Below, in pieces: positions 1 through 17,091 of a stretch of 20,000 nucleotides of DNA. Origin of the DNA: an uncultured virus (IMG/VR IMGVR_UViG_3300025653_003319) (lineage: Duplodnaviria > Heunggongvirae > Uroviricota > Caudoviricetes); IMG/VR virus record IMGVR_UViG_3300025653_003319; one strand, 5' to 3'. Position 1 is the first letter of the stretch, and each line of letters starts with the position of its first letter. A program made the translations under genes and the position numbers. The notes beneath the pieces were generated by a model that had not been told where the DNA came from, searched no databases, and saw only the letters and a list, made by a program, of their open reading frames with translations.

Positions 1-85
1 TTTTACTGACAACATTTTTTGCACCTTGCTTCATTCGGTCAACTGCACCGAATTCAACTTCGTTTATTACTTCATCAATTCTCAT
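1..85 (-). CDS. 5' part of a hypothetical phage protein running off the left edge (MRIDEVINEVEFGAVDRMKQGAKNVVSK...)
   Basis: ATG at 85-83 on the minus strand, AGGAGA Shine-Dalgarno just upstream (92-97), GATAAATA motif at 104-111, and an open frame to the window edge. Not in the ORF track because it is truncated. Confidence 0.7.
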   Translation of the reverse strand, partial: MRIDEVINEVEFGAVDRMKQGAKNVVSK

Positions 86-103
86 TTAATATCTCCTGCC
101 AGT

Positions 104-111
104 TATTTATC
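104..111 (-). promoter_or_regulatory. Putative T4-type late promoter (GATAAATA)
   Basis: Variant of the T4 gp55 promoter TATAAATA, intergenic and upstream of an RBS and ATG; the same motif recurs before other genes, and gp55 is encoded in the window. Confidence 0.55.
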
Positions 112-165
112 TCTTTTCTTATATCAATTAAATAATTACAAGTACAACTATTACTAGAGGAAATT

Positions 166-711
166 ATGAAATATGTTTTAGCAGTTGCACTGGCAGACGA
201 ACTCGAAGGATTGCAAGGCAACTATAACACAATTATTACAGGTGTTGGTAAGATTAACGCCACACTTAAACTCACTGAGTATTTGACAAATAATCCAGAT
301 ACAGAACTGGTTATCAATTATGGTACTGCTGGAGGAGTAGACCCTAATATGAAAGGCATGTTGCACATTGGAAAATTTGTACAAGCAGATATGGATTGTA
401 GAGAATTTGGCTTTGACAAATATCAAACACCATTTGAAACAAATACCCAAGAAATTGTGGTTGACCACAAAGGATTTACATGTTATACTCAAGATAAGTT
501 TGCTACAACTAAACCTGATGGTTATTGCAATGTAGTTGACATGGAGGCTTATGCAATCGCTAAAGTGTGTATGCATTTTGGCGTAGACTTTAAATGTTTA
601 AAGTTTATAAGCGATATAATCGGACAAGGAGATCAGACATCCGAATGGCAGGCGAATAAAGCATTAGGTGTCGAGATGTTCGAGTCCACATTAAAGGATT
701 TAATAAAATAA
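166..711 (+). CDS. mtnN: 5'-methylthioadenosine/S-adenosylhomocysteine nucleosidase-like (PNP/UDP phosphorylase superfamily)
   Basis: Motifs TGVGKINA, VINYGTAGG, VQADMD, T-QDKF, VDMEAYAIAKVC and KFISD match MtnN/Pfs (GIGKVNA, INTGSAGG, EMEA, RAISD). RBS GAGG upstream. Confidence 0.85.
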   Translation: MKYVLAVALADELEGLQGNYNTIITGVGKINATLKLTEYLTNNPDTELVINYGTAGGVDPNMKGMLHIGKFVQADMDCREFGFDKYQTPFETNTQEIVVDHKGFTCYTQDKFATTKPDGYCNVVDMEAYAIAKVCMHFGVDFKCLKFISDIIGQGDQTSEWQANKALGVEMFESTLKDLIK

Positions 712-713
712 AA

Positions 714-2699
714 ATGAACGAATTTGATAAAAACTTTCACATAAACTTTAGTCCACTTTACATTGCCGCAGTTGTGATGTTTTTTCTATTATGGGCAGTA
801 GAGGCTAAAGCAGACGAGATAGAAGAAATTGTTGTAACTGCTCAACAAGAAAAAGTGGTCAAAGCAGACCCAATAACTAGCGGTAGTTTAATAAGTGCTA
901 TTATGCCAGCCTTTACTTGGAATCCAGGTGGCTATGGAGGCTTTGTAGGTTTCAATGAAAGAGGTGCTCAAACATCTCACACTTCAGTTTATGTGAATGG
1001 TATCCCGGCAAATGATCCAGGGGCAAGTTGGTATGACTTTGGACATGACTTTGCAAGTGGACAAACAGTAAAAGTAATTACTGGTGCAAATGGTGTTATA
1101 TATGGCTCAGGCAGTATGGCAGGATCAGTACTTATACAGGATACAATAGAAAGAGGTATTACACTTAGAGTAGAAGATGGTATAAACTATGTCAGAGTTG
1201 CTCCAATAGATCAGTTAGAGTTTAGTACGGTTAAAGATGGCATGGATAGTGTTCGTAATGACAATGAAGAGGAAGATAATTACGAAAACAAAACTGCTAG
1301 GTTTAATGTAGATGCAGGAGACTTTACTATTGTAGGTAAGTTTACTGAATACGAATACGACTATGACAACTGTTATGATTATAATTGGGGTCAAAGCAAT
1401 GACTGTTTACAAGACGGCCAAAGATATAATATTGCTATTAGAAATGATTATATTACAATAGGTAGAAACTATAATACTGCTGAGTATTTCACAGTAGAAG
1501 ATCCTACATATTTAAATGAGGGTTATAGAGATTATTTTAGAATAGGCAATCAAGTAGAACTCAGTCAAAGTTTAAATGTTGCATTTGGTATAGATGTAGA
1601 AAAACAGTATTACAATACAAGCAGTTGGCAAAATGTGGAAGGATCTGAAACAGTTTTAGTAAGTGATACAAGACCAGGTTCCTTTACAGATGAAAATTTA
1701 ACATATAATGATGGTACATTATTACCTTTGTGGAACGGTACAATAGAACCTGATCTTGATAATGCATATGAAGTTATACAAGGTAACGGTGTATATACTC
1801 TAACACAAATAGATGAAAAGTATTCAGACGAAAATGGAGGTATATACTTTCAAGCCAATGCTAACTTTATACTAAATTATAACTTTGGTATTAGACTGGG
1901 CAACGATGATCAGAATGCTCTTAGACTGGGTATTGAAAAAGGCGACTGGTTCTTTAATATAGGAAACAGTTTTAGAAAGCCTAATCTATATGAAAAGTTT
2001 GGCGATGGATATGTACAAGGTAATGAAGAACTAGAACCTGAAAAAGGTGTAGGCATTGAATTAGGATATGGTGTGCTAAGTGTGTTTATGTATGATTTTG
2101 AAGAATCAATAGAGTATGTTCCAGGATATTATACAGACAATATTACAACATCATTGGAATTAGATGCTGAAGCATCTGTTAATACAGATGGTACATATGG
2201 TGGTTGTGTTTTAGATCCTAATTATACAGCATCAGATGGAATGCCATTAGGTTGTGCATATGAAATTGTAGAAGATAATAATCCAGTTTACACTATGGCT
2301 ACATATTCTAACACAGGAGAGTACACCACAGCAGGTGTTAGATATGCAAATAACTTTGGTCCTGTTTTTATAATGTTAAAATATACTGATACAGACCAAA
2401 CTAGAGTACCTAAATTTGCTGGTGTATTACAATACAGCGAAGACTTTTTTGATGTAAACTTTAGATTAAAGTACGCATTTAATTTAGATAGAGCACCTGG
2501 TCCCTATGATGTATTAGAAGAAGGGCAGGAGTATTTGGAAGATCTAAATAAGTTAAACTTATATGTAACCAAAGTGTTTACAAATGGCTTAACACTTTCT
2601 TTTAAAGCAGAAAACATAACAGATGAAATTGTAGAGGTTGTTCCTTTTTATAATACACAAGGTAGAGAAATTTACTTGACATTACATTATAACTGGTAA
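714..2699 (+). CDS. TonB-dependent outer-membrane receptor, BtuB-like
   Basis: Signal peptide ending AEAKA-like (WAVEAKA|DE), TonB box EEIVVTA, plug motifs RGAQTSHTSVYVNGIPAND and GANGVIYGSGSMAGSV, FRKPNLYEKFG...GNEELEPEKG, and C-terminal ENITDE...YNTQGREIYLTLHYNW ending in an aromatic residue. Substrate assignment is less certain than the family. Confidence 0.88.
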   Translation: MNEFDKNFHINFSPLYIAAVVMFFLLWAVEAKADEIEEIVVTAQQEKVVKADPITSGSLISAIMPAFTWNPGGYGGFVGFNERGAQTSHTSVYVNGIPANDPGASWYDFGHDFASGQTVKVITGANGVIYGSGSMAGSVLIQDTIERGITLRVEDGINYVRVAPIDQLEFSTVKDGMDSVRNDNEEEDNYENKTARFNVDAGDFTIVGKFTEYEYDYDNCYDYNWGQSNDCLQDGQRYNIAIRNDYITIGRNYNTAEYFTVEDPTYLNEGYRDYFRIGNQVELSQSLNVAFGIDVEKQYYNTSSWQNVEGSETVLVSDTRPGSFTDENLTYNDGTLLPLWNGTIEPDLDNAYEVIQGNGVYTLTQIDEKYSDENGGIYFQANANFILNYNFGIRLGNDDQNALRLGIEKGDWFFNIGNSFRKPNLYEKFGDGYVQGNEELEPEKGVGIELGYGVLSVFMYDFEESIEYVPGYYTDNITTSLELDAEASVNTDGTYGGCVLDPNYTASDGMPLGCAYEIVEDNNPVYTMATYSNTGEYTTAGVRYANNFGPVFIMLKYTDTDQTRVPKFAGVLQYSEDFFDVNFRLKYAFNLDRAPGPYDVLEEGQEYLEDLNKLNLYVTKVFTNGLTLSFKAENITDEIVEVVPFYNTQGREIYLTLHYNW

Positions 2700-2775
2700 A
2701 AAATATCATATTTTGATTTGTTTGAATTGAATTAGTAGTAAATACAAGTGTATCATTTAACAACATAGGACTAAA

Positions 2776-3039
2776 ATGAAAACTGATAAAATTATTAAGA
2801 ATATTGTATCTACTTTTAAAGATCTAGAGGAAAAGGCCAGTCACATTAATTCGGCAAGTGGTAAGACTGTAATTCACTCTATGATACAAAGAGATAGGAG
2901 AGGCAAGTTTGATAGTTTGGGATTTTATAATTCTAAAACTAAAAGATATGCCTTAGTTTTTATAAGAGATTACATTGCAAGAAATGTAGATGTAATTCCT
3001 GAACTGGATGACATGAAAAGAGTTATCACTGTAAAATAA
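2776..3039 (+). CDS. Hypothetical protein (87 aa, basic)
   Basis: ORF with AGGA RBS and GTAAATA (2738-2744) upstream; its stop overlaps the next start (TAATG). Confidence 0.7.
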   Translation: MKTDKIIKNIVSTFKDLEEKASHINSASGKTVIHSMIQRDRRGKFDSLGFYNSKTKRYALVFIRDYIARNVDVIPELDDMKRVITVK

Positions 3040-3245
3040 TGACCGACCACTTAACAAAAAAATTCACAAACAATACCTTAGAAGAAGATTTAAGAATTAT
3101 GCTCGTTGAAAAAAACAACGAGTGTAATGCACTTAGAGAAGAAATAAAAATGCTTAAAGTGTCTGTTGCTGAAGAGTCAGATGCAAAGTATAGAGCATTT
3201 GTTAAAATTTCTGATTTACAAAGAGAATTAAATTCGACTAAATAG
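3039..3245 (+). CDS. Hypothetical coiled-coil protein (68 aa)
   Basis: TAATG coupling to the upstream ORF; heptad-like helical sequence; 3' end overlaps the convergent gene by 18 nt. Confidence 0.7.
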   Translation: MTDHLTKKFTNNTLEEDLRIMLVEKNNECNALREEIKMLKVSVAEESDAKYRAFVKISDLQRELNSTK

Positions 3246-4046
3246 GTTGGCTTCGGCTACACGTCTATTGTATAATAATGTGCTGATTCCATTACCTCTT
3301 TTAATAGGTATTTCAGTAAACTCCATAAAGTATGTAGCACAATTATAATTTTCACTATTGAGTGCTTTTATTAATTTGCTAGTTGTAAATTTTTTCATAC
3401 CTATATCAAATGCTAGAGATATTAATGCAACTGTTTGATTTGTATTAAGCGGTACTTTGACTCTGTCTACTACCACACTAAAAGCACGGGTCAAATCAAG
3501 TTTATACAGCCTATCGATAAATTCTGGTTTTGCACCATTTACTAGACTATAAACATAAAAATTATTTATTTGGTCATATACAGCAATTGATTTTACTGCT
3601 AATTCATAATCAACTCTACCATTTTTAATAATAGTTGCTCCTTGTAAGTAAGCATGATTATTTCTAATAATTTTTCTTACATCAGGATGATCTAAATCCA
3701 GTTTACTATAATCATTGAATGCTATCATTTTGTTTGATATTTCTAGAGAACTCATTTTATGAGATATACCAATGTATGTTTCGTTTTGTATTTCAGTTGG
3801 CACAAGATATGTATTAAAATTACCAATTATAAAATCATTTGCATGTATTAAAATTTGAGTCGTATCTACTAAATTAGGCAGAATAAATTTAGGTACTACT
3901 GTATTTGTTTTAGAATATACTCCAGTAAGATAATCTGTGCCTTCAAAATGTGATCCTATATAAAAACCACCTGGGTTACAATAACTTAACGGTACATTAT
4001 CCGATGGATCCAACTGCCCTATATTTAGATCATCTATGTATGCCAT
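3228..4046 (-). CDS. GH24 (phage lysozyme-fold) protein, baseplate-associated, probably catalytically degenerate
   Basis: C-terminal VKVPLNTNQTVALISLAFDIG...SKLIKALN...RRVAEANLF matches the GH24 C-lobe. Start placed at 4046 (MAYIDD) because it forms a TAATG overlap with the gp5-like stop. Confidence 0.75.
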   Translation of the reverse strand: MAYIDDLNIGQLDPSDNVPLSYCNPGGFYIGSHFEGTDYLTGVYSKTNTVVPKFILPNLVDTTQILIHANDFIIGNFNTYLVPTEIQNETYIGISHKMSSLEISNKMIAFNDYSKLDLDHPDVRKIIRNNHAYLQGATIIKNGRVDYELAVKSIAVYDQINNFYVYSLVNGAKPEFIDRLYKLDLTRAFSVVVDRVKVPLNTNQTVALISLAFDIGMKKFTTSKLIKALNSENYNCATYFMEFTEIPIKRGNGISTLLYNRRVAEANLFSRI

Positions 4047-5656
4047 TATTTGTTTGTCCTTGAAGGACTTGGTTCTATACCAGGCCATCTTGTAATAATA
4101 GTATTAACTTTTTTATCAAATAAAAGCAATGGCGTTAATGGACTTTTGCCTTGTTCTGCTCTTTTAGGATAACCACCTGATAGTATACCTGCTAATTCAA
4201 ACGATAGTAATGTGTTTGTTGTTTCGGTTGTTTTTATGCCACTCATGTTAGGTGCAACAGGCAAAGGTGGCAAAGTCGGCAATGTTGTTGTTTGAATATC
4301 AACTGTGTCGCCAGCATTGATGTATGTTTTTGTTAGACCCATTATATGTGTATGAGTTGTTGAAAATATATCTACATCTCCCATTGACTTGATTTGTAAT
4401 GTAGGTTCAGAGGGCGGATTATTTGCAGAGGCTGGTGCGGCTATTTCTATTTGTGTGCCTGCCATATGTACTTTGTTATCACCAAATAATTGTAAACTAC
4501 CTGGCATTGTGGTACCAGCGGTTGTAAATAGTCTAGGTCTTGCTTCTATACTTATAGCATTAGAATACATATTAATATCTTTCACACCTTCGATGTTCAC
4601 ACTACCGTTATTTAATACACTCTGATATACTGGATTTAAGTATGCTAATTCTTCTACATCTACAATACCTTTTTGTGTTTCGTTAGGGTCGTTTGGATGT
4701 GGATAGTTGTTAGCGGCTTTGATATTAACATTTTGTCCTGCTTCTATATTTACATCCTTGTCCGCTCTGAGGTTCATATCACCTGATGTTCTTACATTGT
4801 AACTGCCTGTGCCGTAAATGTCTATGTTACCATCGGCATCTATTTCTATATGCCCTGTACCTGACTTATTAGATATGTATATTAAATTTTCTGCGTCATT
4901 GAGTACTATTTGATTTCCGCCACCGGTTCGTATTCTTATAAATGGATTATCGTTACTATCATCCATTACAAATTGATGTCCAGCATGTCTTAGTCCTGGA
5001 TCTTTAGGATTCTTGGGACCTGGTGTTAATATACCATATACTTCACTTGCGCCTTCCCGCCTAGCACCACTAGTACTTTGCCCTCTTATAAAATCATCTA
5101 TCAGTCCTTGTGAAAAAATAACACTTTCTAATTCGTGCATTGATCTGTCATCTGCTTTTACTTTGACACTTTTAACAGTACCGCTGTATTCTACATTATG
5201 ATCCTTGATATTTGCAGACATGTTTGCTTCATTAACAGGTGTCACTCCACCTATGGATTTTCCTGCTGGAATACCTGGTACCATAAAATTTCTATTTGTT
5301 TGAAATAAGCACCCTAAGATTATTCCGGAGAGTTGGCCTTCGTATTCATAAAAACCTACTACAACTTGATTACCATTATCAGGTGGTCTCATCCACATTC
5401 CATAACTGGTTTGTGCAACGTCAGGTGCATTTTTATCGCCTGTGCCTCTCTCAGGAGTTGCACCAGCAAATGGTGATGTCCATATACAATCAAATAAGGC
5501 ACTAGTACTTTTGTTTGTGCCTGTTAATTCTGGTATATGCACTAAGAGTATTCCATTTCTAGAAGGATCGTCTGCACTAATTACTGTGCCAAAATACAGC
5601 GACAAACCTTTACTTGCATTGGATGTGATTTTTTCTTTTATGCGGTTTGGTATCAT
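4046..5656 (-). CDS. gp5: Baseplate central spike protein (T4 gp5/VgrG-like: OB-fold plus beta-helix repeats)
   Basis: N-terminal GTVISADDPSRNGILLVHIPEL, YGMWMRPPDNGNQVVVGF, then GHQFVMDD...IRIRTGGGNQIVLND...HIEIDADGNIDIY and repetitive beta-strands (DMNLRADKDVNIEAGQNVNIKA). Confidence 0.85.
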   Translation of the reverse strand: MIPNRIKEKITSNASKGLSLYFGTVISADDPSRNGILLVHIPELTGTNKSTSALFDCIWTSPFAGATPERGTGDKNAPDVAQTSYGMWMRPPDNGNQVVVGFYEYEGQLSGIILGCLFQTNRNFMVPGIPAGKSIGGVTPVNEANMSANIKDHNVEYSGTVKSVKVKADDRSMHELESVIFSQGLIDDFIRGQSTSGARREGASEVYGILTPGPKNPKDPGLRHAGHQFVMDDSNDNPFIRIRTGGGNQIVLNDAENLIYISNKSGTGHIEIDADGNIDIYGTGSYNVRTSGDMNLRADKDVNIEAGQNVNIKAANNYPHPNDPNETQKGIVDVEELAYLNPVYQSVLNNGSVNIEGVKDINMYSNAISIEARPRLFTTAGTTMPGSLQLFGDNKVHMAGTQIEIAAPASANNPPSEPTLQIKSMGDVDIFSTTHTHIMGLTKTYINAGDTVDIQTTTLPTLPPLPVAPNMSGIKTTETTNTLLSFELAGILSGGYPKRAEQGKSPLTPLLLFDKKVNTIITRWPGIEPSPSRTNK

Positions 5657-5664
5657 ATTACTAT

Positions 5665-8661
5665 TTAACCACCGTCACTATTATTAAGTCTATCTATTGA
5701 TAGGGGATTTACATATCCGGCTGTCGCTAAGTCAGATTCAGTAAAAGTTAAATTGTTTATTGCATTCTCTAACGGATCACCTGAGTCAAGAACCAATTTG
5801 CCGTTTTCATCAAACTGTAATTTAGACGCATCTAAAGATGCTGATATTTGCTCCTCTAAGTGTTCCTCTGCCTCTATTTCTTCGGCACTTTTTGGAAATT
5901 GTCCTTTATAAATTGTTCTATAACATTGTAGAGTTTGTCTAAACTGTCCACCATTAAAGTTATGAAGTACTTTGTAAGGGAAAAACGTTCCTGAGAAAGA
6001 GTTGTCCATGGATAGATCATTTATTTCTCCAGTATGCCTGCTTGGATCATCATGCCATGTATCGTATTCTCTTGGAAACAAATATGTAAAGAAAAAGCCT
6101 ACTTCGCCTATTCCGTATGGTGCAATATTTTCTTTTATAGACTGTTCGCGTACTTTACCTATATCTGTTTGCAGTGAACCTAAATATTCATTGCCTGGCT
6201 TGTGAATAAATACATTGTTTACTTTTGGTGCTTCTTTGCCAAGCCAATAAGGATCTCCTTTGATAGTTAATTCCATTTGTACTAAGTATGGTGCACCCAA
6301 TTGGCTATTTGACAAAGCCGTTGTAAAAATACTTTTATTTGCAAATTTAGAGTTTGGACCTACTAGTGTTTTTATTTTTGGATCATATTCACCAAAAGGT
6401 AAATTCTCACCATGGGTGTTTTGAGAACCATATCCTGCTTGATCAAATTCAAATTCTTCCATATATATAGAATTAAAATTTTCTACCACAGAGTTCTGAA
6501 CAGTACCAGGGCCTACTCCAGTGGAGAATCCTGCAGGAACTGTAATGGAATTAAGTTCTTTGGTAAATTCGCTCATTTTTTCTTTGGCGTCATCTAACAA
6601 TGAGCCTGTGTCAATGCCATATTGGTCTAGTCCAAGATCGCCTACTGCACTTTCAATTTCATTAATAAAGCCACTGACTCCTTCGCTTATTTCATTAAAT
6701 GCACTATCTATTACTGCAAAAGGAGTAAAAGCATTTGCTGTAATTTTTGCTATCTGTTCGCTAATTTCATTTGATATAATGTCTTCCACATCAGACTGCA
6801 AAGTTGATATTCTGTTTGTGATTGTATCTAAATCTGAGGTCAAGTCTTTTATGGTTTTGGTTTTTTGTAATATTGCAACCGGAGAACTGGGTAACTTTAA
6901 ATTGAGTTTTCTAATATTTTTGGAATTTGGTTTTGTAATACCAACTGGACTCAGTCCAGAGGCTACTGCGGCTAAATCTTCTGTGAGTGTTATAGGCAAC
7001 TTTGCTAGTGTTGTAAGTAAATTTTTTGCATCTGTGGCAAGTTGTTCAAACTTCTCAAGAATTTGATCTTTTGTAGTAGGCCTCACTTTACTATTGAAAT
7101 CGTTAAGTTTATCAGTGCCTGCTGAACTTATTTGTGCGGCTGGCGACTGTGTGTAATTAGTTTGTCGTCCACCTGCAACTGGTACTAAATATCTTATACC
7201 ATTTTCTATTTTTAAATCAACATCAAAAATCTGATCATTAATGCCAGAATATGTATAAGCATAAAGTTTATTAATATTCCTGTCTTTTGCGGCTTTTACT
7301 AATTTAACCTTTTTCTTCTTGTCACCTTTTGTTGTACTGGTTTCTATGTCTAATTCTTTTGCATCTATCACAGATGATGAATCTAGTTTGCCGGTAAGTA
7401 CATAAGTATATTCCATTGCTGGTTTTCCAGTCGATGTATACAAGTATTTGTCATCAAATTTTTGCCACGTGTATTCTCTACGAATCGCTGGTGTAATATA
7501 TTGTGTTTTATCTTTATTGAGTTTTTCAGTATCTAATTGTGCTTCGCCTTCATCCATATCATACCTATGATTGGTTTTTGCATATTTGTGATTCATTGAG
7601 GCTAAGCCATACATTACAGTATCAACTGGGGTATTTTTTTTGATATGTATTTTAATTTTGGCTTTTTTGCCATCATCGGCTGGTTTTTCTTCACCGGCTT
7701 CTGCGGCCTGTTCAATTCTACCTATAGTTTCATTGCCATCTTCCTCGGTAGTGAGTGTTAAATTTTGCATTGTATCAAAATATTCTTTATCAATAGGCAT
7801 ATCTTTAAATATAGTTTTCAATCCAGGAAGTCCAAGAGGATCTAACATGTAGATGCCTTTTTCAATACCTATACTTGGCTTTGGTTTTTCTAATTCAATA
7901 TCCCCAGTCTGCGTCTTTTGTAGTTTTTGCATTTGTTTGGTAAAACTCTCAAACAATTCGTTAACTGTGCCTTTGTCACCTGATACAATTTTGATATCCT
8001 CCGGGACTCTTTGTACTGATGCATCCGCAGATGCAACTACTTCGTCGATTGCAACTGCTTGAATATTATACTCAGAACCTGTTGGACTTGGATTTACATC
8101 AAAATTTATAATTCTTATGGGTATTGCTGTGTGATAAAAAGGCTCAGCATTGTTAATATCGCCAAATAATTTATCATTTTCTGTTAATTTGTCTTCCTGA
8201 CCGATCAATTCTATTTCCAAAAGGTACGGCATAGATTGTAAAGGAAATGGGTCACTCTCGCCCAAAGTTTTGTTAAGTTCAAATTGAGATCTATTCAGCA
8301 AATCAATAAATGACATTCCAAATGGTTCTTTTAAATCAAAATGCATTATGTAATTGTACATTTTATGACCTTTCATTGTTGGAGGAGGCGATGGATGTAC
8401 AACAGTACTAATTGATAAATTATCTATTTGAAATTTAGTAACACTTGTTTGTGCAATAATAATCCTGTTACCTTGTTTTAAATCTAAATTCACAAGACCA
8501 TCAGTATAAAAATTAGATGGCAACATACTAAAAGTTAAACGATAAGTGTATGAAGAATATGCATCTGTAGGATTAAATAGGATATTGCTTTGCAATTCTT
8601 CTGGCAGTATGTGTTTGAATAGGTTTGGATTAGCAAAATATTCTGATTTTATTTCTGCCAT
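5665..8661 (-). CDS. Large baseplate hub protein (gp27-like) with long insertions
   Basis: Lies between the gp53-like and gp5-like genes; motifs YSSYTYRLTF, FDLKEPFGMSFIDLL, YAYTYSGINDQIFDVDL, ELTIKGDPYWLG, and C-terminal FSGTF...VLHNFNGGQFRQTLQCYR typical of hub proteins. Confidence 0.65.
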   Translation of the reverse strand: MAEIKSEYFANPNLFKHILPEELQSNILFNPTDAYSSYTYRLTFSMLPSNFYTDGLVNLDLKQGNRIIIAQTSVTKFQIDNLSISTVVHPSPPPTMKGHKMYNYIMHFDLKEPFGMSFIDLLNRSQFELNKTLGESDPFPLQSMPYLLEIELIGQEDKLTENDKLFGDINNAEPFYHTAIPIRIINFDVNPSPTGSEYNIQAVAIDEVVASADASVQRVPEDIKIVSGDKGTVNELFESFTKQMQKLQKTQTGDIELEKPKPSIGIEKGIYMLDPLGLPGLKTIFKDMPIDKEYFDTMQNLTLTTEEDGNETIGRIEQAAEAGEEKPADDGKKAKIKIHIKKNTPVDTVMYGLASMNHKYAKTNHRYDMDEGEAQLDTEKLNKDKTQYITPAIRREYTWQKFDDKYLYTSTGKPAMEYTYVLTGKLDSSSVIDAKELDIETSTTKGDKKKKVKLVKAAKDRNINKLYAYTYSGINDQIFDVDLKIENGIRYLVPVAGGRQTNYTQSPAAQISSAGTDKLNDFNSKVRPTTKDQILEKFEQLATDAKNLLTTLAKLPITLTEDLAAVASGLSPVGITKPNSKNIRKLNLKLPSSPVAILQKTKTIKDLTSDLDTITNRISTLQSDVEDIISNEISEQIAKITANAFTPFAVIDSAFNEISEGVSGFINEIESAVGDLGLDQYGIDTGSLLDDAKEKMSEFTKELNSITVPAGFSTGVGPGTVQNSVVENFNSIYMEEFEFDQAGYGSQNTHGENLPFGEYDPKIKTLVGPNSKFANKSIFTTALSNSQLGAPYLVQMELTIKGDPYWLGKEAPKVNNVFIHKPGNEYLGSLQTDIGKVREQSIKENIAPYGIGEVGFFFTYLFPREYDTWHDDPSRHTGEINDLSMDNSFSGTFFPYKVLHNFNGGQFRQTLQCYRTIYKGQFPKSAEEIEAEEHLEEQISASLDASKLQFDENGKLVLDSGDPLENAINNLTFTESDLATAGYVNPLSIDRLNNSDGG

Positions 8662-8662
8662 A

Positions 8663-8968
8663 TTAATTACCTGCTATCTGTCTTGCTCGGCTACCTGTGA
8701 CTAATCTTATAATTGTACCTTCTTTGAAATCTTGTATAGGATCTTTTATTATTTCTGGATTACTTAGTACCAATATCCACCATAACTCAGGACTACCAAA
8801 TTTTTCAAATGCAAGTAAGTCAGGCCTACTGGCATATTTTTTAGTAATTAAAAATTTTTGATCACTTACCGTAGATGGTACTGCAGGTAAATTCATGTAA
8901 TTTAAACCTGTATAAAACGACATATTTTGTGCGTCTTTTAAAAAACTGTTTTTGTTATATACTGCCAT
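8663..8968 (-). CDS. Baseplate wedge protein (gp53/LysM-like)
   Basis: Motif YASRPDLLAFEKFGSPELWWILVLSNPEIIKDPIQDFKEGTIIRL is typical of gp53/tail-X LysM-like proteins; position in the baseplate operon. Confidence 0.8.
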   Translation of the reverse strand: MAVYNKNSFLKDAQNMSFYTGLNYMNLPAVPSTVSDQKFLITKKYASRPDLLAFEKFGSPELWWILVLSNPEIIKDPIQDFKEGTIIRLVTGSRARQIAGN

Positions 8969-9708
8969 TAAATAAATCCTATATTTCCGCCTTTTTTCAT
9001 TTGATCAAGGTCAAATAATCTTCGCTGTCTTCTAGGCGAGTATTGCACCATTAGTGTAATTGTCATTTGTAAGTCTGTTGGTACATAAGTTACTCCTGCG
9101 GCTTCTCCGGCATTATTTTCTGTAGTCCCATCTGTAGTTGTTTGTGTTTTAAATGCACTAACAAATTTTCCGTTAGTTTTTATAATATTATGTTGTACTG
9201 GTATGTAGTCTACATTATTTTCCATAATAAAGTTGACGTCATTAATAACAACTGGTACTCTGTCGTATCCATGGGGGCCTAAATAACTAAATTCTAAAAC
9301 AGGCGGCGGTGCACCAAATTTATTAGATGATACTGCCGCTTCACCAAAGTTTGCTTTAGTTGTAACTTTTAAAAAGTGCATTATTGCTAGTAAATATCGT
9401 GCTTCTTCTTGTGTAGTCACTGAATACTGCACCTGTAATGGTATTGTAGGAGGCGAACTCATCATATAAGTATGTAACGGATAATTTGTGCCTTGAAATT
9501 GCTGTGTATCATACGTTGCACTAAAGGCTATAAAAATACTTGGCTGGTAGTGAAACATAATGCCGCGGTCAGGCTTGAGAGGACTCAATATATCAGTCTT
9601 TACTAGGCTATCTGGAAAGAATGAATCTTTATTGGCTCGCATAACCTGTAGTCGTGCTCTCCAGTCAATGTCTAGATTACTATTTCTTCCTAAATCTGTA
9701 TTTGCCAT
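8968..9708 (-). CDS. Tail tube initiator / baseplate-tube junction protein (gp48/gp54/gp19-fold-like)
   Basis: FHYQPSI, GAPPPVLEFSYLG...VPVVINDVNF...VDY and VPT...ITLMVQYSP motifs; first gene of the baseplate operon; RBS AGGAG and late-promoter motif upstream. Confidence 0.65.
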   Translation of the reverse strand: MANTDLGRNSNLDIDWRARLQVMRANKDSFFPDSLVKTDILSPLKPDRGIMFHYQPSIFIAFSATYDTQQFQGTNYPLHTYMMSSPPTIPLQVQYSVTTQEEARYLLAIMHFLKVTTKANFGEAAVSSNKFGAPPPVLEFSYLGPHGYDRVPVVINDVNFIMENNVDYIPVQHNIIKTNGKFVSAFKTQTTTDGTTENNAGEAAGVTYVPTDLQMTITLMVQYSPRRQRRLFDLDQMKKGGNIGFI

Positions 9709-9729
9709 TCTTTCTCCTAATGTACTATG

Positions 9730-9738
9730 TATTTATCG
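9730..9738 (-). promoter_or_regulatory. Putative late promoter (CGATAAATA) for the baseplate operon
   Basis: Identical 9-mer to both motifs in the 16978-17092 intergenic region; about 20 nt upstream of the ATG at 9708. Confidence 0.65.
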
Positions 9739-9783
9739 ATATCAATAAACTAGCCGTTATTGGCCAGAATTGGATAATTATAC

Positions 9784-9811
9784 TTGACACTAGAAAAATT
9801 TAATGTATAAT
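9784..9811 (+). promoter_or_regulatory. Sigma70-type early/middle promoter TTGACA-N16-TATAAT
   Basis: Perfect -35 (9784-9789) and -10 (9806-9811) hexamers, followed by AAGGAG (9825-9830) and the gp55 ATG at 9836. Confidence 0.8.
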
Positions 9812-9835
9812 AAAGGTTAATTATAAGGAGACACA

Positions 9836-10684
9836 ATGGTCGCAAAAGTTAAATACTTGAACAACAAAGATTTACTTAAACAAATACATCTCAGTAAGAT
9901 GTCCTTTTGTTGGGTTAAATCACCCCAATACGATTATCCAGACATTATTATTAATTTAGAAGATGAAATTACTGATGCAGTGATACTCGAAGCAAAACAA
10001 AACAAAGCAGGAAAAATGAAAGATATTGCTTATAAAAAAGCAGTTGAAAATTACGACGGACCTGCTAATAAAAAGCCTAGACAAAAAGACTTTTTAGTTG
10101 CTCTAGAGGATATTGCAGACGAAGATGTAGTAGTAAGGCAAATGACTTACGAGCATATTCCATTAGAGCCAGGCAGAAAAAAGAATCCTAGAAACGAAGC
10201 AGAAACAAAAGCAAAAGCAAACTTTCCACCATTTAAGCATTATGGCTTGATAAACGGTACATGGGAAGAGGTTGCTAGGAGTCACTGGAAAGGCGGTCCT
10301 AAGAGTGGTAAGTTTTCTGTTGATCATGGTAGCATTACAAACGAATTAGGTAAGATGTACCTTAAGTTAGTAGATAGATATAGTCAAAGATCTAATTGGA
10401 GAGGCTATACTTATGTTGACGAAATGAGAGGACAGGCATTACTACAACTTGCAATGATTGGATTACAATTCAATGAAGCAAAATCGGATAATCCATTTGC
10501 TTATTATACAGCCGCAATTACAAATAGTTTTACAAGAGTGTTAAACATAGAAAAGAAAAATCAAAACATCAGAGACGACATATTAATCGACTCTGGGCAC
10601 TTACCAAGTTATGGCAGACAGATAGCACACGAAAATGAAATTAAGGCTTTAAGAGAAGCAAAAAATTCAGAATCGGATGCCTAA
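9836..10684 (+). CDS. gp55: T4 gp55-like sigma factor for late transcription
   Basis: YLNNKDLL N-terminus and core ITNELGKMYLKLVDRYSQRSNWRGYTYVDEM...FNEAKSDNPFAYYT...NSFTRVLNIEKKNQNIRD; the 55-47-46 gene order matches T4-like phages. Confidence 0.9.
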   Translation: MVAKVKYLNNKDLLKQIHLSKMSFCWVKSPQYDYPDIIINLEDEITDAVILEAKQNKAGKMKDIAYKKAVENYDGPANKKPRQKDFLVALEDIADEDVVVRQMTYEHIPLEPGRKKNPRNEAETKAKANFPPFKHYGLINGTWEEVARSHWKGGPKSGKFSVDHGSITNELGKMYLKLVDRYSQRSNWRGYTYVDEMRGQALLQLAMIGLQFNEAKSDNPFAYYTAAITNSFTRVLNIEKKNQNIRDDILIDSGHLPSYGRQIAHENEIKALREAKNSESDA

Positions 10685-10686
10685 GT

Positions 10687-11700
10687 ATGACAGACAATTT
10701 ATTTGAAAAAGCAGTTGTCTTTACGGACATACATTACGGACTAAAATCTAATAGTCATCAACACTTAAAAGATTGTAGTAATTTTGTTGACTGGTTTATT
10801 GCTGAGGCAAAAGTCCGCGGTGCTGAAACCTGTTTCTTTTTAGGCGACTGGCATCATCATAGAGCAAGTGTTAATGTAGCAACACTAAATGCTAGTTGGA
10901 GAGACCTTAAGAAACTTAACGAAGCATTTAACAAAGTATACTTTATTACAGGTAATCACGATTTATATTACAGAGATAAACGTGAATTAAACAGCATGGA
11001 GTTTGCTAGAGACTTAAACAACTTTGTAATGATAGACGAGTTGTTTGAAGAAGGCAATGTTGGTATTGTACCTTGGTTAGTAGAAAACGAATACAAGAGA
11101 GTTGCTAAAATGCAATGCAAGTATATGTTTGGTCATTTTGAATTACCGTTCTTTAAAATGAATGCAATGATAGAGATGCCAGACCACGGTGGCATTAATG
11201 CATCAATGTTGCGTAATCCAGAATATGTGTTTAGTGGACACTTTCATAAAAGACAATATGACGAAAACATTCATTATATAGGTAATGCATTTCCACACAA
11301 TTACGCAGACGCACAAGACAATGATAGAGGTTACATGTATCTTGAATGGGGCAAGGAACCAGTATATGTAAACTGGCCTGAGTGTCCTAAGTATGTTACA
11401 TGCGGACTTGTTGAATTAATTGATGATCCTGCAAAATACTTAGATGCATATACTTATGCAAGAATCAAATTAGATGTTGATATCAGTTATGAAGAAGCAA
11501 CATTCATAAAAGAAAACTTTATGGAAAAATACAAGTGTAGAGAAATACAACTTGTACCTATTAAAGAAGTTGAAGAAGAATACGAAGCCGGCGAAATATC
11601 ATTTGAAAGTGTTGAACAAATTGTTATAAGCCAATTACAAACCATAGAAAGTAATACAATTAACACAGAAAAGTTAATTGACATTTACCAAAATTTATAA
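10687..11700 (+). CDS. gp47: Recombination endonuclease subunit (T4 gp47, Mre11/SbcD-like metallophosphoesterase)
   Basis: Phosphoesterase motifs DIHYG, GDWHH, GNHD, GHFE and SGHFH. Confidence 0.93.
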   Translation: MTDNLFEKAVVFTDIHYGLKSNSHQHLKDCSNFVDWFIAEAKVRGAETCFFLGDWHHHRASVNVATLNASWRDLKKLNEAFNKVYFITGNHDLYYRDKRELNSMEFARDLNNFVMIDELFEEGNVGIVPWLVENEYKRVAKMQCKYMFGHFELPFFKMNAMIEMPDHGGINASMLRNPEYVFSGHFHKRQYDENIHYIGNAFPHNYADAQDNDRGYMYLEWGKEPVYVNWPECPKYVTCGLVELIDDPAKYLDAYTYARIKLDVDISYEEATFIKENFMEKYKCREIQLVPIKEVEEEYEAGEISFESVEQIVISQLQTIESNTINTEKLIDIYQNL

Positions 11701-11703
11701 TAT

Positions 11704-13473
11704 ATGCTTAAATTAAAAAACATCAGTGTAAAGAATTTCATGAGTGTTGGAAACAACGTTCAAGGTGTGCGGTTTGACGACAAGAACTTAACACTAGTAC
11801 TAGGTAACAATCTAGACCTAGGTGGTGACGGTAGTAGAAATGGCACAGGTAAGACTACTATTATTAATGCACTCAGTTACGCATTATATGGTGAAGCACT
11901 TACTAACATTCGTCGCGATAACTTAATTAACAAAACAAATGCCAAGGGCATGATAGTTAGTGTAGACTTTGAACTTAACGGTGTTGAATATCGTATAGAA
12001 AGAGGCAGACGTCCTAATATATTACGTTTCTTTGTTAACGGTACTGAGTCAGGTGATCAAGAGCAACAAGGCGACAGCAGAGAAACACAAAAACACATTG
12101 AAAAAATAATTGGCTTTACTCACGAAATGTTTAAGCATATTGTTGCACTAAACACATACACTGAACCTTTCTTAGGCATGAAAAATAACGATCAGAGAGA
12201 CATGATTGAGCAACTACTTGGTATACAGGAGTTGTCAGAAAAAGCAGAAACACTCAAAGAAAGAATGAAGGATACTAGAGACAGTATCAAGGAAGAGGAA
12301 ATTCGAATCAATGCTGTCAAAGATGGCAATGCTAGAATGGAAAAGAATATCAAAGAAATCGAAAGCCGCAGTATGGCCTGGGAAGCCAATAAGAAATCTA
12401 AACTATCTGAAATGGCTGATGCTCTAGAAGAAGTCAACGAACTAGATGTAGACGAAGAAATTGCAAAGCATAATGCATTAGTTGAAATAAAAGATCACGA
12501 AGCAAATTTAAATGTATTAGTAAGTAATATCACTAACACAGAAACCAGTATTAAAAGAAGTAATACTAAACTGCAAACACTAGAAGCAAATTTGGCTAAA
12601 GCAAAAGAAGGTACATGCCCTGCTTGTGGACAAGATACAGCACATTTAGACACACATGAAGAATATACGGCCGATTTAAACACCGAAATAACAGAGGAAA
12701 GGACATATAACAACACCCTAATCACTAAAGAAAAAGAGTTAAAAACAGGCGTAGAAATGCTAGGACCTGTTCAAGAACGCCCTAAAACCTTCTATAGAAC
12801 ACTAGAAGAGGCCCTTACTCATAGAAATAATGTAGATAACTTAATACAAAGTATTGAAGACAAGAACAACGAAGAAAATCCTTACATAGAACAAATAGAA
12901 TCTATGAAACAAACTGGTATACAAGAAGTCAGTTGGGATATTATAAATGAACTCACAGCATTAAAAGATCACCAAGAGTTCTTGTATAAACTGCTAACAA
13001 GCAAAGACAGTTTTATCCGTAGACGTATTATTGATCAAAACATTGCTTACTTGAATCACAGACTGGCACACTACTTAAATGCTATTGGTTTGCCACATGA
13101 TGTTAAATTTAACAGTGACCTAAGTGTAGAGATCACAGAGTATGGCAGAGACTTAGACTTTGATAATTTAAGTAGAGGTGAACGTAACAGACTAATACTG
13201 AGTTTGAGTTGGGCATTCAGAGACATATATGAAAGTCTTAATCACCCAATGAACTTTTTATGCATTGACGAACTTATTGACAGTGGTTTAGACGGTGTTG
13301 GTGTAGAGAATGCATTGGGCATACTCAAGAAAATGAGCAGAGAACAAAACAAAAATATCATGCTTATATCACACAGAGAAGAACTCAGTGGTAGAGTAAA
13401 TGATGTATTATATGTAATCAAAGAAGGCGGCTTCACTAGTTACAACACTGATACGGAATATGTGGAAAGTTAG
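11704..13473 (+). CDS. gp46: Recombination ATPase subunit (T4 gp46, Rad50/SbcC-like)
   Basis: Walker A NGTGKTT, coiled coil with zinc hook CPACG, signature LSRGE, Walker B/D-loop IDELIDSGLD, H-loop ISH. Confidence 0.95.
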   Translation: MLKLKNISVKNFMSVGNNVQGVRFDDKNLTLVLGNNLDLGGDGSRNGTGKTTIINALSYALYGEALTNIRRDNLINKTNAKGMIVSVDFELNGVEYRIERGRRPNILRFFVNGTESGDQEQQGDSRETQKHIEKIIGFTHEMFKHIVALNTYTEPFLGMKNNDQRDMIEQLLGIQELSEKAETLKERMKDTRDSIKEEEIRINAVKDGNARMEKNIKEIESRSMAWEANKKSKLSEMADALEEVNELDVDEEIAKHNALVEIKDHEANLNVLVSNITNTETSIKRSNTKLQTLEANLAKAKEGTCPACGQDTAHLDTHEEYTADLNTEITEERTYNNTLITKEKELKTGVEMLGPVQERPKTFYRTLEEALTHRNNVDNLIQSIEDKNNEENPYIEQIESMKQTGIQEVSWDIINELTALKDHQEFLYKLLTSKDSFIRRRIIDQNIAYLNHRLAHYLNAIGLPHDVKFNSDLSVEITEYGRDLDFDNLSRGERNRLILSLSWAFRDIYESLNHPMNFLCIDELIDSGLDGVGVENALGILKKMSREQNKNIMLISHREELSGRVNDVLYVIKEGGFTSYNTDTEYVES

Positions 13474-13917
13474 GTGAGCAACTGGACATACAACGGAAAG
13501 GCAGTAGACAACTTACCCGAAGATTGCGAAGCATTCGTGTATCTAATTACTAACAACACAAATAACAAAAAGTATGTAGGTAAGAAACTAGCAAAGTTTA
13601 AAACTACTAAACCACCACTCAAAGGCAAAAAGAATAAACGCCGTGGTTTCAAAGAAAGCGATTGGCAAACTTATTGGGGCAGTTCAGACAATCTAAAAGA
13701 AGACGTAGAAGCACTAGGTGAAGATAAATTTACCAGAGAGATTTTATACTTTTGTCCTAGCAGAGGCGTTGCTAGTTATATAGAAGCAAGAGAACAATTT
13801 GAAAGAAAAGTGTTATTGCGTGATGACTACTACAATGGTATTATCAACGTTCGAGTAGGTGGTTCAAAAATCTTACGTGAAGGCGTTAAAGATTCACTCC
13901 ATAATCCAGATACATAA
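13474..13917 (+). CDS. GIY-YIG family nuclease-like protein (stand-alone, T4-like phage type)
   Basis: AFVYLITN...KKYVGKK (GIY-YIG variant), YWGSS, REIL, conserved E (YIEAREQF) and YYNG; GTG start directly after the gp46 TAG. Confidence 0.8.
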   Translation: MSNWTYNGKAVDNLPEDCEAFVYLITNNTNNKKYVGKKLAKFKTTKPPLKGKKNKRRGFKESDWQTYWGSSDNLKEDVEALGEDKFTREILYFCPSRGVASYIEAREQFERKVLLRDDYYNGIINVRVGGSKILREGVKDSLHNPDT

Positions 13918-14391
13918 ACTCCATCTAGTACCAGAAATAACTTTGCTTACTTCATGTTCTGTATCACCTGGAAAAACTATTCCGTCCCCTGCTTTTAGTT
14001 CTACAGGCTTATCCTCAATATAAAATATCCCGCCTTCAAACTCGTCATTGAGGGGAATACATATAGAGTACTTTGATAGATCTTTGTGTTTAGTACAAGT
14101 GTCATTTTTGTTATAATAATTAGCATAGAAAACATTATGATTTGTTATTATGTATGGTTCTGAATCTATACTTACTGGCATGATCAAACTGCTAACATAC
14201 TCTGCTAACTCCTGTGTTAATCGTAACCGGTGCGTATTAAATGTTTTATGTGTGTTATTCCAGTTGGTGTCAGTCCAGTAACCAGGTACCATTGTAAGAC
14301 CCCCAGGGTTGGGAGATTCGTCTGGTAATTTGTTTATTATTTCAGAACACTGATCTTTAGTCAAAATGCCGGTGATCGTAAAATGCTCCAT
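13894..14391 (-). CDS. 2OG-Fe(II) oxygenase (prolyl 4-hydroxylase-like)
   Basis: HxD (HKD), SICIPLNDEFEGG, GDGIVFP, distal H (EHEVSKV) and GTRWSL with the 2OG-binding Arg. Confidence 0.88.
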   Translation of the reverse strand: MEHFTITGILTKDQCSEIINKLPDESPNPGGLTMVPGYWTDTNWNNTHKTFNTHRLRLTQELAEYVSSLIMPVSIDSEPYIITNHNVFYANYYNKNDTCTKHKDLSKYSICIPLNDEFEGGIFYIEDKPVELKAGDGIVFPGDTEHEVSKVISGTRWSLCIWIME

Positions 14392-14396
14392 AGCAA

Positions 14397-14404
14397 TATT
14401 TATG
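14397..14404 (-). promoter_or_regulatory. Putative late promoter CATAAATA, 5 nt before the ATG (likely leaderless transcript)
   Basis: Minus strand reads CATAAATA TTGCT ATG; no Shine-Dalgarno. Confidence 0.55.
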
Positions 14405-14459
14405 ACTAGGATTACTCAAAAAATGTTATAAGCAACATCATAAGACGATAACTATTTGC

Positions 14460-14880
14460 TGAAGAACACAAAAAACACGGCACACTCAGACACAAAGTCT
14501 AACTCACATTACGGCACACAAATAGGACTATACACCCGCCCCAACCGAGGCATTGAATATCGGGCTCTTTGACAATCCGGCAATGGAAACACCCGGTGCG
14601 AGATTCTGGAGATGTATAGCGGCAAAGATACAAACACACGACAAACAGTATTAGAAGGATGTAGGCTCTGAGAAAAAGCAACCTACAAATTGATATAACT
14701 AAACTCTACAAGGTTATAACAATTTCCGTGAGATTCGAGACGGTAGTGTATGGGGACAAAAGGCTCACTGGTTCCTAATAGCACCCGAGTTAGAGATGGT
14801 AATGGTTCACTTGATGACACCTGACATTGTTCTCCTTGCATAAGGAGAATTATGGCTCAAGTTACTTGATAACTTCTTTT
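14460..14880 (+). ncRNA. Candidate large structured non-coding RNA of unassigned family (boundaries approximate)
   Basis: No credible ORF and higher GC than flanks. Helices: 14528-14534/14613-14619; CCGG..TG-GAAA-CA..CCGG (14577-14596); TGTAGG/CCTACA (14660-14687); AATTG-TATAAC/GTTATA-CAATT (14688-14724); CCGT/ACGG (14726-14743); TTCTCCTT/AAGGAGAA (14830-14849). A/C-rich unpaired linkers. Confidence 0.6.
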
Positions 14881-14887
14881 AAAAAAA

Positions 14888-14952
14888 TTGCAAACAAAAA
14901 CTGATTGAACGAAGTGAATGAAGTTTGCAGTTGGCAAAGACACGAAGTGTCT
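14888..14952. repeat. Cluster of inverted repeats with GAA-triloop hairpins
   Basis: TGCAAAC/GTTTGCA (14889-14895/14923-14929) enclosing GAACGAAGT-GAATGAAGT, and perfect AGACAC-GAA-GTGTCT (14938-14952). Confidence 0.6.
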
Positions 14953-14965
14953 ATAAACATTAACA

Positions 14966-14973
14966 CATAAATA
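14966..14973 (+). promoter_or_regulatory. Putative late promoter CATAAATA, 5 nt before the ATG (likely leaderless transcript)
   Basis: Reads CATAAATA TTAAC ATG; no Shine-Dalgarno. Confidence 0.55.
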
Positions 14974-14978
14974 TTAAC

Positions 14979-15875: not shown

Positions 15876-16145
15876 TGGTGATTGAGGTGCAGTATCAGGT
15901 ATCATTTCCTGTTTCATTTCATTATCTTTTTTACCGCCGTTCTTGGCAGTAATATACGAACTAAAAGATTGTAGTACCATAACCTGATCGACTACGCCCA
16001 TATGCCAGGCAGTAGGCCAGTCAATAGCACCTTCAGAATACATTACAAAATCAGCAATGCCCTTTGTGATATCTTCTGCCTGCTGTTCTAGACTTCCTAG
16101 ATAGTCCCTGATTTGCTCAGGGTCTGCCCCACCTAGGAATTTAAG
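15864..16145 (-). CDS. Uncalled -1-frame extension (93 aa) of the gp26-like gene; gp51/tail-chaperone 'T'-like domain
   Basis: Open -1 frame from the slippery site to TAA at 15866-15864: LKFLGGADPEQIRDYLGSLEQQAEDITKGIADFVMYSEGAIDWPTAWHMGVVDQVMVLQSFSSYITAKNGGKKDNEMKQEMIPDTAPQSPSEE. It fills the whole gap, and its first ATG (codon 35) has no obvious RBS. Confidence 0.75.
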   Translation of the reverse strand, partial: LKFLGGADPEQIRDYLGSLEQQAEDITKGIADFVMYSEGAIDWPTAWHMGVVDQVMVLQSFSSYITAKNGGKKDNEMKQEMIPDTAPQSPSEE

Positions 16146-16151
16146 AAAAAA
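16094..16151 (-). other. Programmed -1 ribosomal frameshift signal
   Basis: In-frame heptamer T TTT TTC (16151-16145), spacer TTAAA, then stem TTCCTAGGTGG/CTATCTAGGAA (11 bp with 2 G-U) capped by inner hairpin CCCTGA-GCAAA-TCAGGG. Confidence 0.75.
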
Positions 16152-16978: not shown

Positions 16979-17010
16979 ATTCTCTCCAATATGTGATGTT
17001 TTAATAAAAA

Positions 17011-17060: not shown

Positions 17061-17091
17061 ATTATAATATACTCAGTTTACAGGAATTGAA

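Follow-up and report, generated by a model that had tools for sequence, protein, structure and literature searches.

Why should a bacteriophage encode a TonB-dependent outer-membrane receptor, and why should that gene lie directly behind one for a nucleosidase? The question is raised by positions 166 to 2,699 of the DNA stretch analyzed here (the window), 20,000 nucleotides of the uncultured caudoviral record IMGVR_UViG_3300025653_003319, which correspond, on the opposite strand, to bases 1–19,982 of a 90,575-bp IMG/VR contig (G000; about 25% complete by CheckV). The original prediction, made from the letters of this stretch, described a receptor with a leader, TonB box, plug and terminal aromatic residue that is flanked by phage genes and begins 2 nt after the nucleosidase stop. 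The open reading frames (ORFs), domain matches and coordinates obtained in our analysis confirmed all of these features. In addition, our data demonstrate that the receptor is a genuine phage gene and belongs to a deep clade that is seen only in viral sequence.

The receptor family comprises 120 IMG/VR loci. A search of a 5.8-billion-protein set returned 517 family matches, the best 120 of which were 49–93% identical and nearly all unnamed, and the three nearest ESM Atlas clusters were 100% viral. One pattern scan of 185,579 species genomes with two peptide patterns, by which distant cellular kin could be missed, gave 13 pattern matches and 0 relatives, whereas a comparable scan recovered at least 577 relatives of the nucleosidase. 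A tblastn search of 50,697 GenBank phage records with the receptor resulted in no match. A quick IQ-TREE phylogeny was built from 70 rows, consisting of 57 phage alleles, 10 BtuB-like cellular proteins, and E. coli BtuB, CirA and FepA. The 57 phage alleles formed one clade (SH-aLRT 100), and a branch of 3.22 changes/site divided this clade from the cellular receptors. The gene arrangement of the window was found on 12 viral contigs from different metagenomes, six of them near-identical and six diverged, and the stretch was present in 20 sequencing runs, which come from 20 studies with the labels freshwater, estuary or seawater. Because of this recurrence the locus is not an assembly chimera, a concern that had been raised at the outset.

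The genes that surround the nucleosidase and the receptor are of phage type and include those for a lysozyme-domain protein, a gp5-like hub, and baseplate wedge and hub proteins. The window also encodes a gp55-like late sigma factor, a gp46/gp47-type nuclease, a SegE-like GIY-YIG endonuclease and a 2-oxoglutarate (2OG)-Fe(II) oxygenase, and GC content is continuous across the two genes of interest. The gp46 homologue is nearest (53%) to that of the Pseudomonas jumbo phage PA5oct and its kin. Related contigs with the same receptor family are 250,519, 216,820 and 339,794 bp long, with CheckV completeness estimates of 66, 59 and 91%, respectively. Based on these lengths and estimates, the source phage is a jumbo T4-like myovirus of roughly 340–380 kb. 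IMG/VR tags two of the related records (G007 and G014) as "provirus". By gene content, both belong with the lytic-type T4-like jumbo phages described here, and the tag may be a misclassification due to host-like metabolic genes.

The receptor gene (714..2699, + strand; ATG at 714-716) encodes 661 amino acids, and its sequence identifies the product as an intact member of the TonB-dependent receptor superfamily. The first segment (714..842, +) contains the export leader (residues 1-33) and the TonB box (residues 35-43). By heuristic prediction the leader has a 15-residue hydrophobic core, LYIAAVVMFFLLWAV, with a best 12-aa Kyte-Doolittle score of 2.84, followed by cleavage between AKA and D. 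The TonB box, EIEEIVVTA, was aligned by hhalign with DTLVVTA of E. coli BtuB, and its residues E37, E38 and V41 are invariant in the family alignment. The plug, or cork, domain (846..1124, +; residues 45-137) matched Pfam PF07715 with 34.5 bits against a cut-off of 23.9 (E 3e-8). It is the most conserved part of the family, with 75–89% identity among alleles and many invariant columns. The protein ends in LHYNW, so that the terminal residue is the aromatic Trp that serves as a signal for the β-barrel assembly machinery (BAM). Among 57 distinct family members, a hydrophobic leader was present in all 57, the strict TonB-box pattern in 51, and a terminal W or Y in 56.

The barrel model PF00593 gave no match for the receptor of the window itself; precomputed matches existed for 2 of the 120 listed relatives and for 47–79% of the members of related Atlas clusters. 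An hhalign comparison of a 27-member phage family profile with a profile of 17 ordinary cellular receptors covered residues 34-661 over 517 columns (probability 99.96, E 7.5e-39), and a 22-strand barrel would be expected from this homology alone. Two long stretches of the phage profile were left unaligned. These are phage-specific insertion 1 (1611..1826, +; residues ~300-371) and insertion 2 (2124..2294, +; residues ~471-527), the latter with a Cys pair. Both are presumed surface loops, both are hypervariable, and both are missing from shorter alleles.

The position of the receptor gene differs among the relatives. Of the 120 IMG/VR loci, 80 were kept for the counts of genomic context, and 12 of these 80 share the order of the window: nucleosidase, receptor, two small ORFs, and convergent lysozyme and hub genes. 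In this lineage no separate receptor promoter was found. The receptor gene has no Shine-Dalgarno sequence of its own and starts 2 nt behind the nucleosidase stop codon (TAA, 709-711), and therefore its translation is likely coupled to that of the upstream gene. In the remaining loci the receptor lies within the replication module, in the order gp32, UvsX, UvsY, AAA protein, receptor and UvsW helicase. An identity of the AAA protein as CobS was considered and dropped, as there was no NCBIfam match. Downstream of the replication-module receptor there is either a kinase/NMNAT-MazG-MetK group, with MetK in the available flank of 30 loci, or a nucleosidase that is 39–42% identical and located at +4.1 to +5.0 kb (14 loci).

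A perfect sigma-70 consensus promoter (TTGACA-N17-TATAAT) and a GGAGA ribosome site precede the replication-module receptor in 19 of the 22 loci inspected, following a GC-rich, terminator-like hairpin with a T run. Of the 64 loci that could be evaluated, 56 have the receptor upstream of UvsW and 8 lack it there. An own promoter, a hairpin and variable presence form the pattern of an accessory ("moron"-type) cassette, which in these relatives would be expressed early and read by host RNA polymerase. The claim that receptor and nucleosidase form a coupled module holds for the lineage of the window, but most relatives have the receptor as an early transcription unit of its own. A conserved element was also observed upstream of the receptor promoter at L009:5833-6000 and in about 17 other loci. 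It consists of an CCCCCTAG stretch, an inverted repeat (GTGTTCRAA...TTYGAACAC) and a GC hairpin with a T run; it had no Rfam or tRNA match, and it could represent paired terminators, or a scar of recombination or insertion, at the cassette boundary. In three relatives no tRNA was found beside the receptor.

Several rankings place the receptor closest to the BtuB type. When the family profile was compared with the PDB, BtuB chains were the only matches (E from 5e-4). In hhalign comparisons with four E. coli references, the E-values were 2.1e-6 for BtuB, 3.1e-4 for CirA, 9e-3 for FepA and 0.08 for FhuA, a ranking among these four classes only. An exhaustive search of 1.84 billion representatives reached the first ordinary full-length receptors at E ~1e-8; TonB-B12 was the best NCBIfam model for all 25 of the nearest ordinary receptors tested, and six of six short relatives matched B12/BtuB models only. 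The phage protein also resembles E. coli BtuB in its size class (661 versus 614 aa), leader, TonB box, plug and C-terminal aromatic residue. BtuB has a five-aspartate calcium cage and residues T227-Y233 of loop 3 (L3) that contact cobalamin (in part from PMC7360065). Two acidic positions that do not vary in the phage family, E186 (or D183) and D188, are matched with Asp193 and Asp195 of the cage, in a part of the alignment where the confidence is 0-4 of 9. In the same low-confidence loop alignment, the family motif E/D-x-D-(G/N)-(Y/F) falls on these two cage aspartates and a Y-x-Y-D-N motif corresponds to the start of BtuB loop 3.

The upstream gene (166..711, +) encodes a 181-aa protein that appears to be a short-form nucleosidase of the type acting on methylthioadenosine (MTA), S-adenosylhomocysteine (SAH) and 5'-deoxyadenosine. 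It matched Pfam PNP_UDP_1 with 49.6 bits against a cut-off of 25.1. The curated nucleosidase models remained under their cut-offs (NF004168, 78.5 vs 129; NF004079, 52.5 vs 169; TIGR01704, 43.1 vs 73.8). All 21 nucleosidase matches in the PDB were MTA/SAH nucleosidases, and hhalign against E. coli Mtn gave a probability of 99.1 (181 vs 232 aa). The catalytic residues of E. coli Mtn are Glu12, Met173-Glu174 and Ser196-Asp197. E12, M126-E127 and S149-D150 were invariant in 14 short-form sequences, and the segments VDMEAYAIA and ISD aligned with VEMEATAIA and ISD of E. coli Mtn, with the N-terminal Glu lying outside the aligned range. These matches and the retained catalytic motifs uphold the earlier assignment of the gene to the MTA/SAH-nucleosidase type.

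The enzyme is shorter than the full-length architecture of about 230 aa. The short form, of about 175–190 aa, is common in aquatic bacteria; a protein search resulted in 2,590 matches to it at E <= 0.001, and it occurs in metagenome-assembled genomes of many aquatic lineages. Five GenBank phage records matched the nucleosidase at 36–38% identity, and its cellular relatives (best 46%) belong to SAR116, SAR86, Porticoccaceae, Pelagibacter, Chloroflexota and others. The nucleosidase was considered as a clue to the host or donor, and this was dropped because the cellular relatives are too widely spread to name one. By its sequence relationships, it resembles other metabolic genes that phages have captured in the conventional way.

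A link to radical S-adenosylmethionine (SAM) chemistry, which had also been proposed, is borne out by the gene content of the phage and its relatives. Five twitch-domain radical-SAM genes are encoded on the contig of the window, with 301–364 bits against a cut-off of 170. The paralogue counts are five on this contig, five in its close relative G008, nine in the 250-kb record G006 and about 10 in the 340-kb record G011. Radical-SAM turnover releases 5'-deoxyadenosine, which is a known substrate of MTA/SAH nucleosidases. A homologue of the methylcobalamin-dependent radical-SAM C-methyltransferases of the KedN5 type was detected in 3 of 16 related records, and these are all three records that are at least 59% complete (G006:C1:243332-246682, L119; G011:C1:111522-113054, L286; G012:C1:59093-60625, L285). 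It combines an N-terminal B12-binding region with a radical-SAM core and scored 144–227 bits, under the cut-off of 700. In G011 it lies about 100 kb from the receptor, and it was not found in the 13 records that are at most 28% complete, the contig of the window included. Ten of the 16 related records encode the nucleosidase, nine encode MetK, and 15 encode at least one of the two.

Two further observations concern this set of genes. The radical-SAM genes form arrays (NF033640, all above cut-off) at G000:C1:59869-65777 and 74860-78076, G006:C1:162685-177055 and G011:C1:4617-14231. The arrays adjoin genes for a carbamoyltransferase, an aminotransferase, a sugar dehydrogenase, a glycosyltransferase and a sulfotransferase, and this content suggests an extensive modification pathway. 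A small SAM-cycle pair, with MetK next to the short nucleosidase, occurs in three records (G013:C1:30096-31563, G014:C1:83936-85894 and G015:C1:75509-76966).

Taken as a whole, our leading but tentative reading is that the phage uses the receptor as an accessory importer, for which a corrinoid is the foremost candidate substrate, and that it acts together with the nucleosidase to sustain radical-SAM chemistry. The receptor would be exported by the host Sec system and inserted by BAM during infection, and it would be energized by host TonB-ExbBD through the conserved TonB box. The infected cell would thereby take up more of a micronutrient that is in short supply, most likely a corrinoid of the vitamin B12 type. 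Imported B12 could then serve the phage cobalamin-type radical-SAM methyltransferase and perhaps a host B12-dependent methionine synthase, so that methionine and SAM would remain available to the radical-SAM enzymes of the phage, which number five to about 10. The inhibitors of these enzymes, 5'-deoxyadenosine, SAH and MTA, would be cleared by the nucleosidase encoded upstream. In the lineage of the window both genes would act as a single operon with coupled translation; most relatives would express the receptor separately, as an early gene, with a nucleosidase or a SAM synthetase a few kb away. The original prediction had pointed to the arrangement in E. coli, and there mtn indeed abuts btuF, overlapping it by 8 nt. 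In both cases an MTA/SAH nucleosidase gene is followed by a gene of the B12-uptake type, with the overlap in E. coli and a 2-nt gap in the phage. The phage differs in that the partner is an outer-membrane receptor and not a periplasmic binding protein, and in that its nucleosidase is of the short form.

A number of results weigh against this interpretation. The receptor fell short of the curated BtuB models by a wide margin, with 19.9 bits against 599.7 for TIGR01779 and 20.3 against 836 for NF007926, and the nearest cellular kin are likewise under the TonB-B12/BtuB cut-offs. Every ranking places BtuB first and yet no threshold was reached, and therefore the term "BtuB-like" used in the original prediction is fair as a statement of kinship but not of membership or substrate; judged from sequence, B12 specificity is unproven. 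Outside the plug the alignment of the receptor with BtuB is of low confidence. No clear counterparts in the receptor were seen for BtuB Asp179, Asp230 and Asp241, which leaves three of the five cage aspartates unrecognizable, or for the L3 cobalamin contacts T227-Y233, and the two large insertions have no BtuB equivalent. Unlike E. coli BtuB, the virus-encoded gene has no cobalamin riboswitch: no Rfam family reached its gathering score in the window, L009 or L029, and the receptor leaders are short (~30–60 nt).

The genomic side of the B12 argument has weak points as well. Searches of the 90-kb contig of the phage itself and of G008, both about 25% complete, revealed neither a B12-binding domain nor a KedN5 homologue. 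The suggestion of a class II ribonucleotide reductase (RNR) as a B12 consumer did not survive, as the relatives encode class I enzymes (NrdA with an ATP cone, and NrdB) and there is no RNR in the 90 kb of the phage itself. TonB_C was absent from 15 related records and MotA/ExbB from five, including the 340-kb record that is 91% complete, most of these records being fragments; on these records the receptor must therefore use host TonB. Adjacency of receptor and nucleosidase is confined to the 12 of 80 loci that form one sub-lineage, and in the other loci the linkage with MetK or the nucleosidase may be plain conserved, inherited synteny. Finally, fast loop divergence and allele swapping are unexpected for a simple importer.

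The divergence is sharply localized. Between the window and a relative, flanking DNA is 85–90% identical, identity falls to 41–79% inside the receptor ORF, and it recovers right after. At the protein level the insertions are 38–39% identical, compared with 70–78% for the plug and most of the barrel; insertion 1 is 38% identical to that of L066, with a DNA identity of 41–43%. In the tree, alleles from loci with the gene order of the window (context A), the window allele included, occur in three separate places (at least three changes), each sister to alleles of the other context. Alleles that do not follow genome context point to an exchange of receptor alleles between lineages, and the loop divergence together with this putative exchange fits a surface protein under diversifying selection. 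A less likely alternative is that the phage alters the outer membrane with its own receptor-like barrel, for superinfection exclusion, receptor masking or a decoy, so that rival phages or bacteriocins would encounter a different surface, and that transport is secondary or lost. The receptor gene as an island of divergence, with its variability concentrated in the presumed surface insertions, favors such surface remodeling, as does the swapping of alleles between genome contexts. Early sigma-70 expression in the relatives would suit exclusion, and a role of this kind is proposed for huge-phage outer-membrane proteins, with a citation of lambda Lom blocking LamB, in bioRxiv 10.64898/2026.10.24.761521. 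On the other hand, alleles that share 49–93% identity show no or almost no variation in the TonB box and at dozens of positions in the plug, which argues that energized transport is under selection. There is also no partner envelope gene nearby, the two small downstream ORFs being without leaders.

Import of a different substrate, such as an iron chelate, haem or another cofactor for the many iron-dependent enzymes of the phage, is an unlikely possibility. The contig encodes several 2OG-Fe(II) oxygenases in addition to its five [4Fe-4S] radical-SAM enzymes, and the class I RNR of the relatives is iron-dependent. The failure of all BtuB equivalog thresholds is consistent with another substrate, the plug gave a weak match to a haemoglobin/transferrin receptor model (E 1.6e-4), and the large insertions could make a different binding site. 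Against this, BtuB was the first type in every family ranking, and the siderophore references CirA, FepA and FhuA scored worse.

A broader version of the corrinoid reading, which we regard as speculative and improbable, is that aquatic phages of 340–380 kb carry a vitamin system of their own. This system would consist of virus-only transporters of the B12 type that are turned on early by a promoter of the host type, a cobalamin radical-SAM methyltransferase that receives the corrinoid and is one of up to about 10 radical-SAM enzymes, and MetK and the nucleosidase, which would prevent the SAM cycle from stalling, with the receptor loops in an arms race. A transporter exposed on infected cells would place its loops in competition with other phages, and this would explain the allele swapping. 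A misjoining of host DNA to a phage contig, or a recent capture from a host, is suggested by the normally cellular nature of outer-membrane receptors and by the "provirus" label of two related records, but it is so improbable as to be set aside, given the same gene order in diverged versions from different metagenomes, a family always located between phage genes at its 120 viral loci, the lack of relatives in species genomes where the same scan found those of the nucleosidase, the 3.22 changes/site to cellular receptors and the absence of a break in GC content.

The two genes are preceded by a divergent intergenic control region (86..165). It contains GATAAATA at 104-111 (-), TTAAATA at 128-134 (+) and the Shine-Dalgarno sequence AGAGGA at 156-161, which is the ribosome site of the nucleosidase and lies five bases 5' of its ATG. 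GATAAATA occurs in the window at 104-111 (-), 9730-9737 (-), 17012-17019 (+) and 17052-17059 (-), with five more copies elsewhere in the contig. All nine copies in the 90-kb contig fall in the collected intergenic upstream stretches, several of them before baseplate or structural genes, and by this distribution GATAAATA appears to be the late-promoter word of the phage. The T4 late promoter TATAAATA had 0 copies in the window against 3.4 expected. The copy at 104-111 belongs to the leftward gene. The TTAAATA noted in the original prediction is indeed present, but it is only a degenerate look-alike of GATAAATA, partly conserved and recognizable in five of six related sequences. No sigma-70-like site was found in 86-165, and over 1-3400 their count was at chance level (21 vs 17.2). 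Sigma-70 consensus promoters (TTGAC-N17-TATAAT) were observed upstream of the gp55-like gene and several others. In four of four runs, RNA-library contigs end at 78-93 and restart at 158-168, with 94-157 uncovered, and single contigs span 158-2534 and 168-3918. This hints weakly at a single transcript that begins shortly before the nucleosidase and extends over both genes; the libraries possibly contain DNA, and the runs may share one campaign.

To the left of this region, a divergent gene starts at the ATG complementary to 83-85 (1..85, -) and exits the left end of the window. It encodes 194 aa (contig ORF C1:19898-20482), the protein has no Pfam match, and the next gene in the contig is a gp25-like baseplate gene by its Pfam match. 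A plus-strand ORF at 2-157 was rejected as spurious, the true neighbor being the minus-strand gene that starts at 85. About 5 kb past the left end of the window, after a 1,403-aa ORF and the gp25-like gene, there is a single ORF of 7,093 aa (G000:C1:25142-46423, +), which has no Pfam match over its whole length and is probably a giant fibre or baseplate protein. To the right, two small ORFs of 87 and 68 aa (2776..3245, +) lie 3' of the receptor in every locus of the same synteny type, and neither has an export leader or a family match. They are followed by the convergent structural genes for the lysozyme-domain protein and the gp5-like baseplate hub (3228..5656, -), which mark the phage context on this side. 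Further along, a SegE-type GIY-YIG homing endonuclease gene (13474-13917, +; Pfam E 1e-33) begins one base after the end of the gp46-like gene and is likely a mobile insertion in the recombination nuclease operon. The only match of a 298-aa ORF (14979-15875, +) is a weak one, at its N-terminus, to components of flavin-dependent monooxygenases (NCBIfam E 1e-6, far under cut-off), and an ORF of at least 969 aa (17092-19998, +) that adjoins baseplate genes has no family match.

Phage products in the host outer membrane are not new. Bor of lambda and Llp of T5 are phage envelope proteins that alter the surface of lysogenic or infected cells. Like lambda Lom and Bor and T5 Llp, the receptor is encoded by a phage gene that can have its own promoter, with a product destined for the host outer membrane; those proteins are small barrels or lipoproteins without TonB box or plug. 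Closer precedents are the outer-membrane β-barrels of huge phages, including a 22-strand TonB-dependent receptor of Lak phages with transcripts, as presented in the accessible part of bioRxiv 10.64898/2026.10.24.761521, whose authors also discuss superinfection exclusion. The two cases are alike in a genome above 200 kb, a signal peptide, a barrel (expected from homology for the present receptor), metatranscriptome transcripts and a proposed envelope or nutrient role. That part of the preprint has no mention of an aquatic BtuB-related clade, a sigma-70 cassette, a link to a nucleosidase or radical-SAM enzymes, or allele swapping. The "TonB-dependent receptor" of the Skadi pelagiphage is a different case (PMC10504331). 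A literature search that covered accessible parts of the sources, including PMC12619734, PMC9004378, PMC10504331 and PMC7288430, returned no description of the BtuB-related aquatic clade or of its nucleosidase/radical-SAM link. Thus, huge phages with TonB-dependent receptors were known already, and what is new is a well-delimited family whose link to the chemistry of SAM and radical-SAM enzymes can be tested.

Both the abundance of the family (120 viral loci) and its conservation (the same site occupied in 56 of 64 related genomes) are notable, and the stretch is present in RNA libraries. With its hypervariable loops and the apparent exchange of alleles, the receptor is a candidate system in which to study how phages compete with each other at the cell surface, and its function can be tested by complementation in E. 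coli. If the receptor does import B12 or another trace cofactor, then viruses would add uptake machinery to the surface of the infected cell, beyond the internal reprogramming of its metabolism, and the partitioning of scarce vitamins in aquatic communities would be affected.

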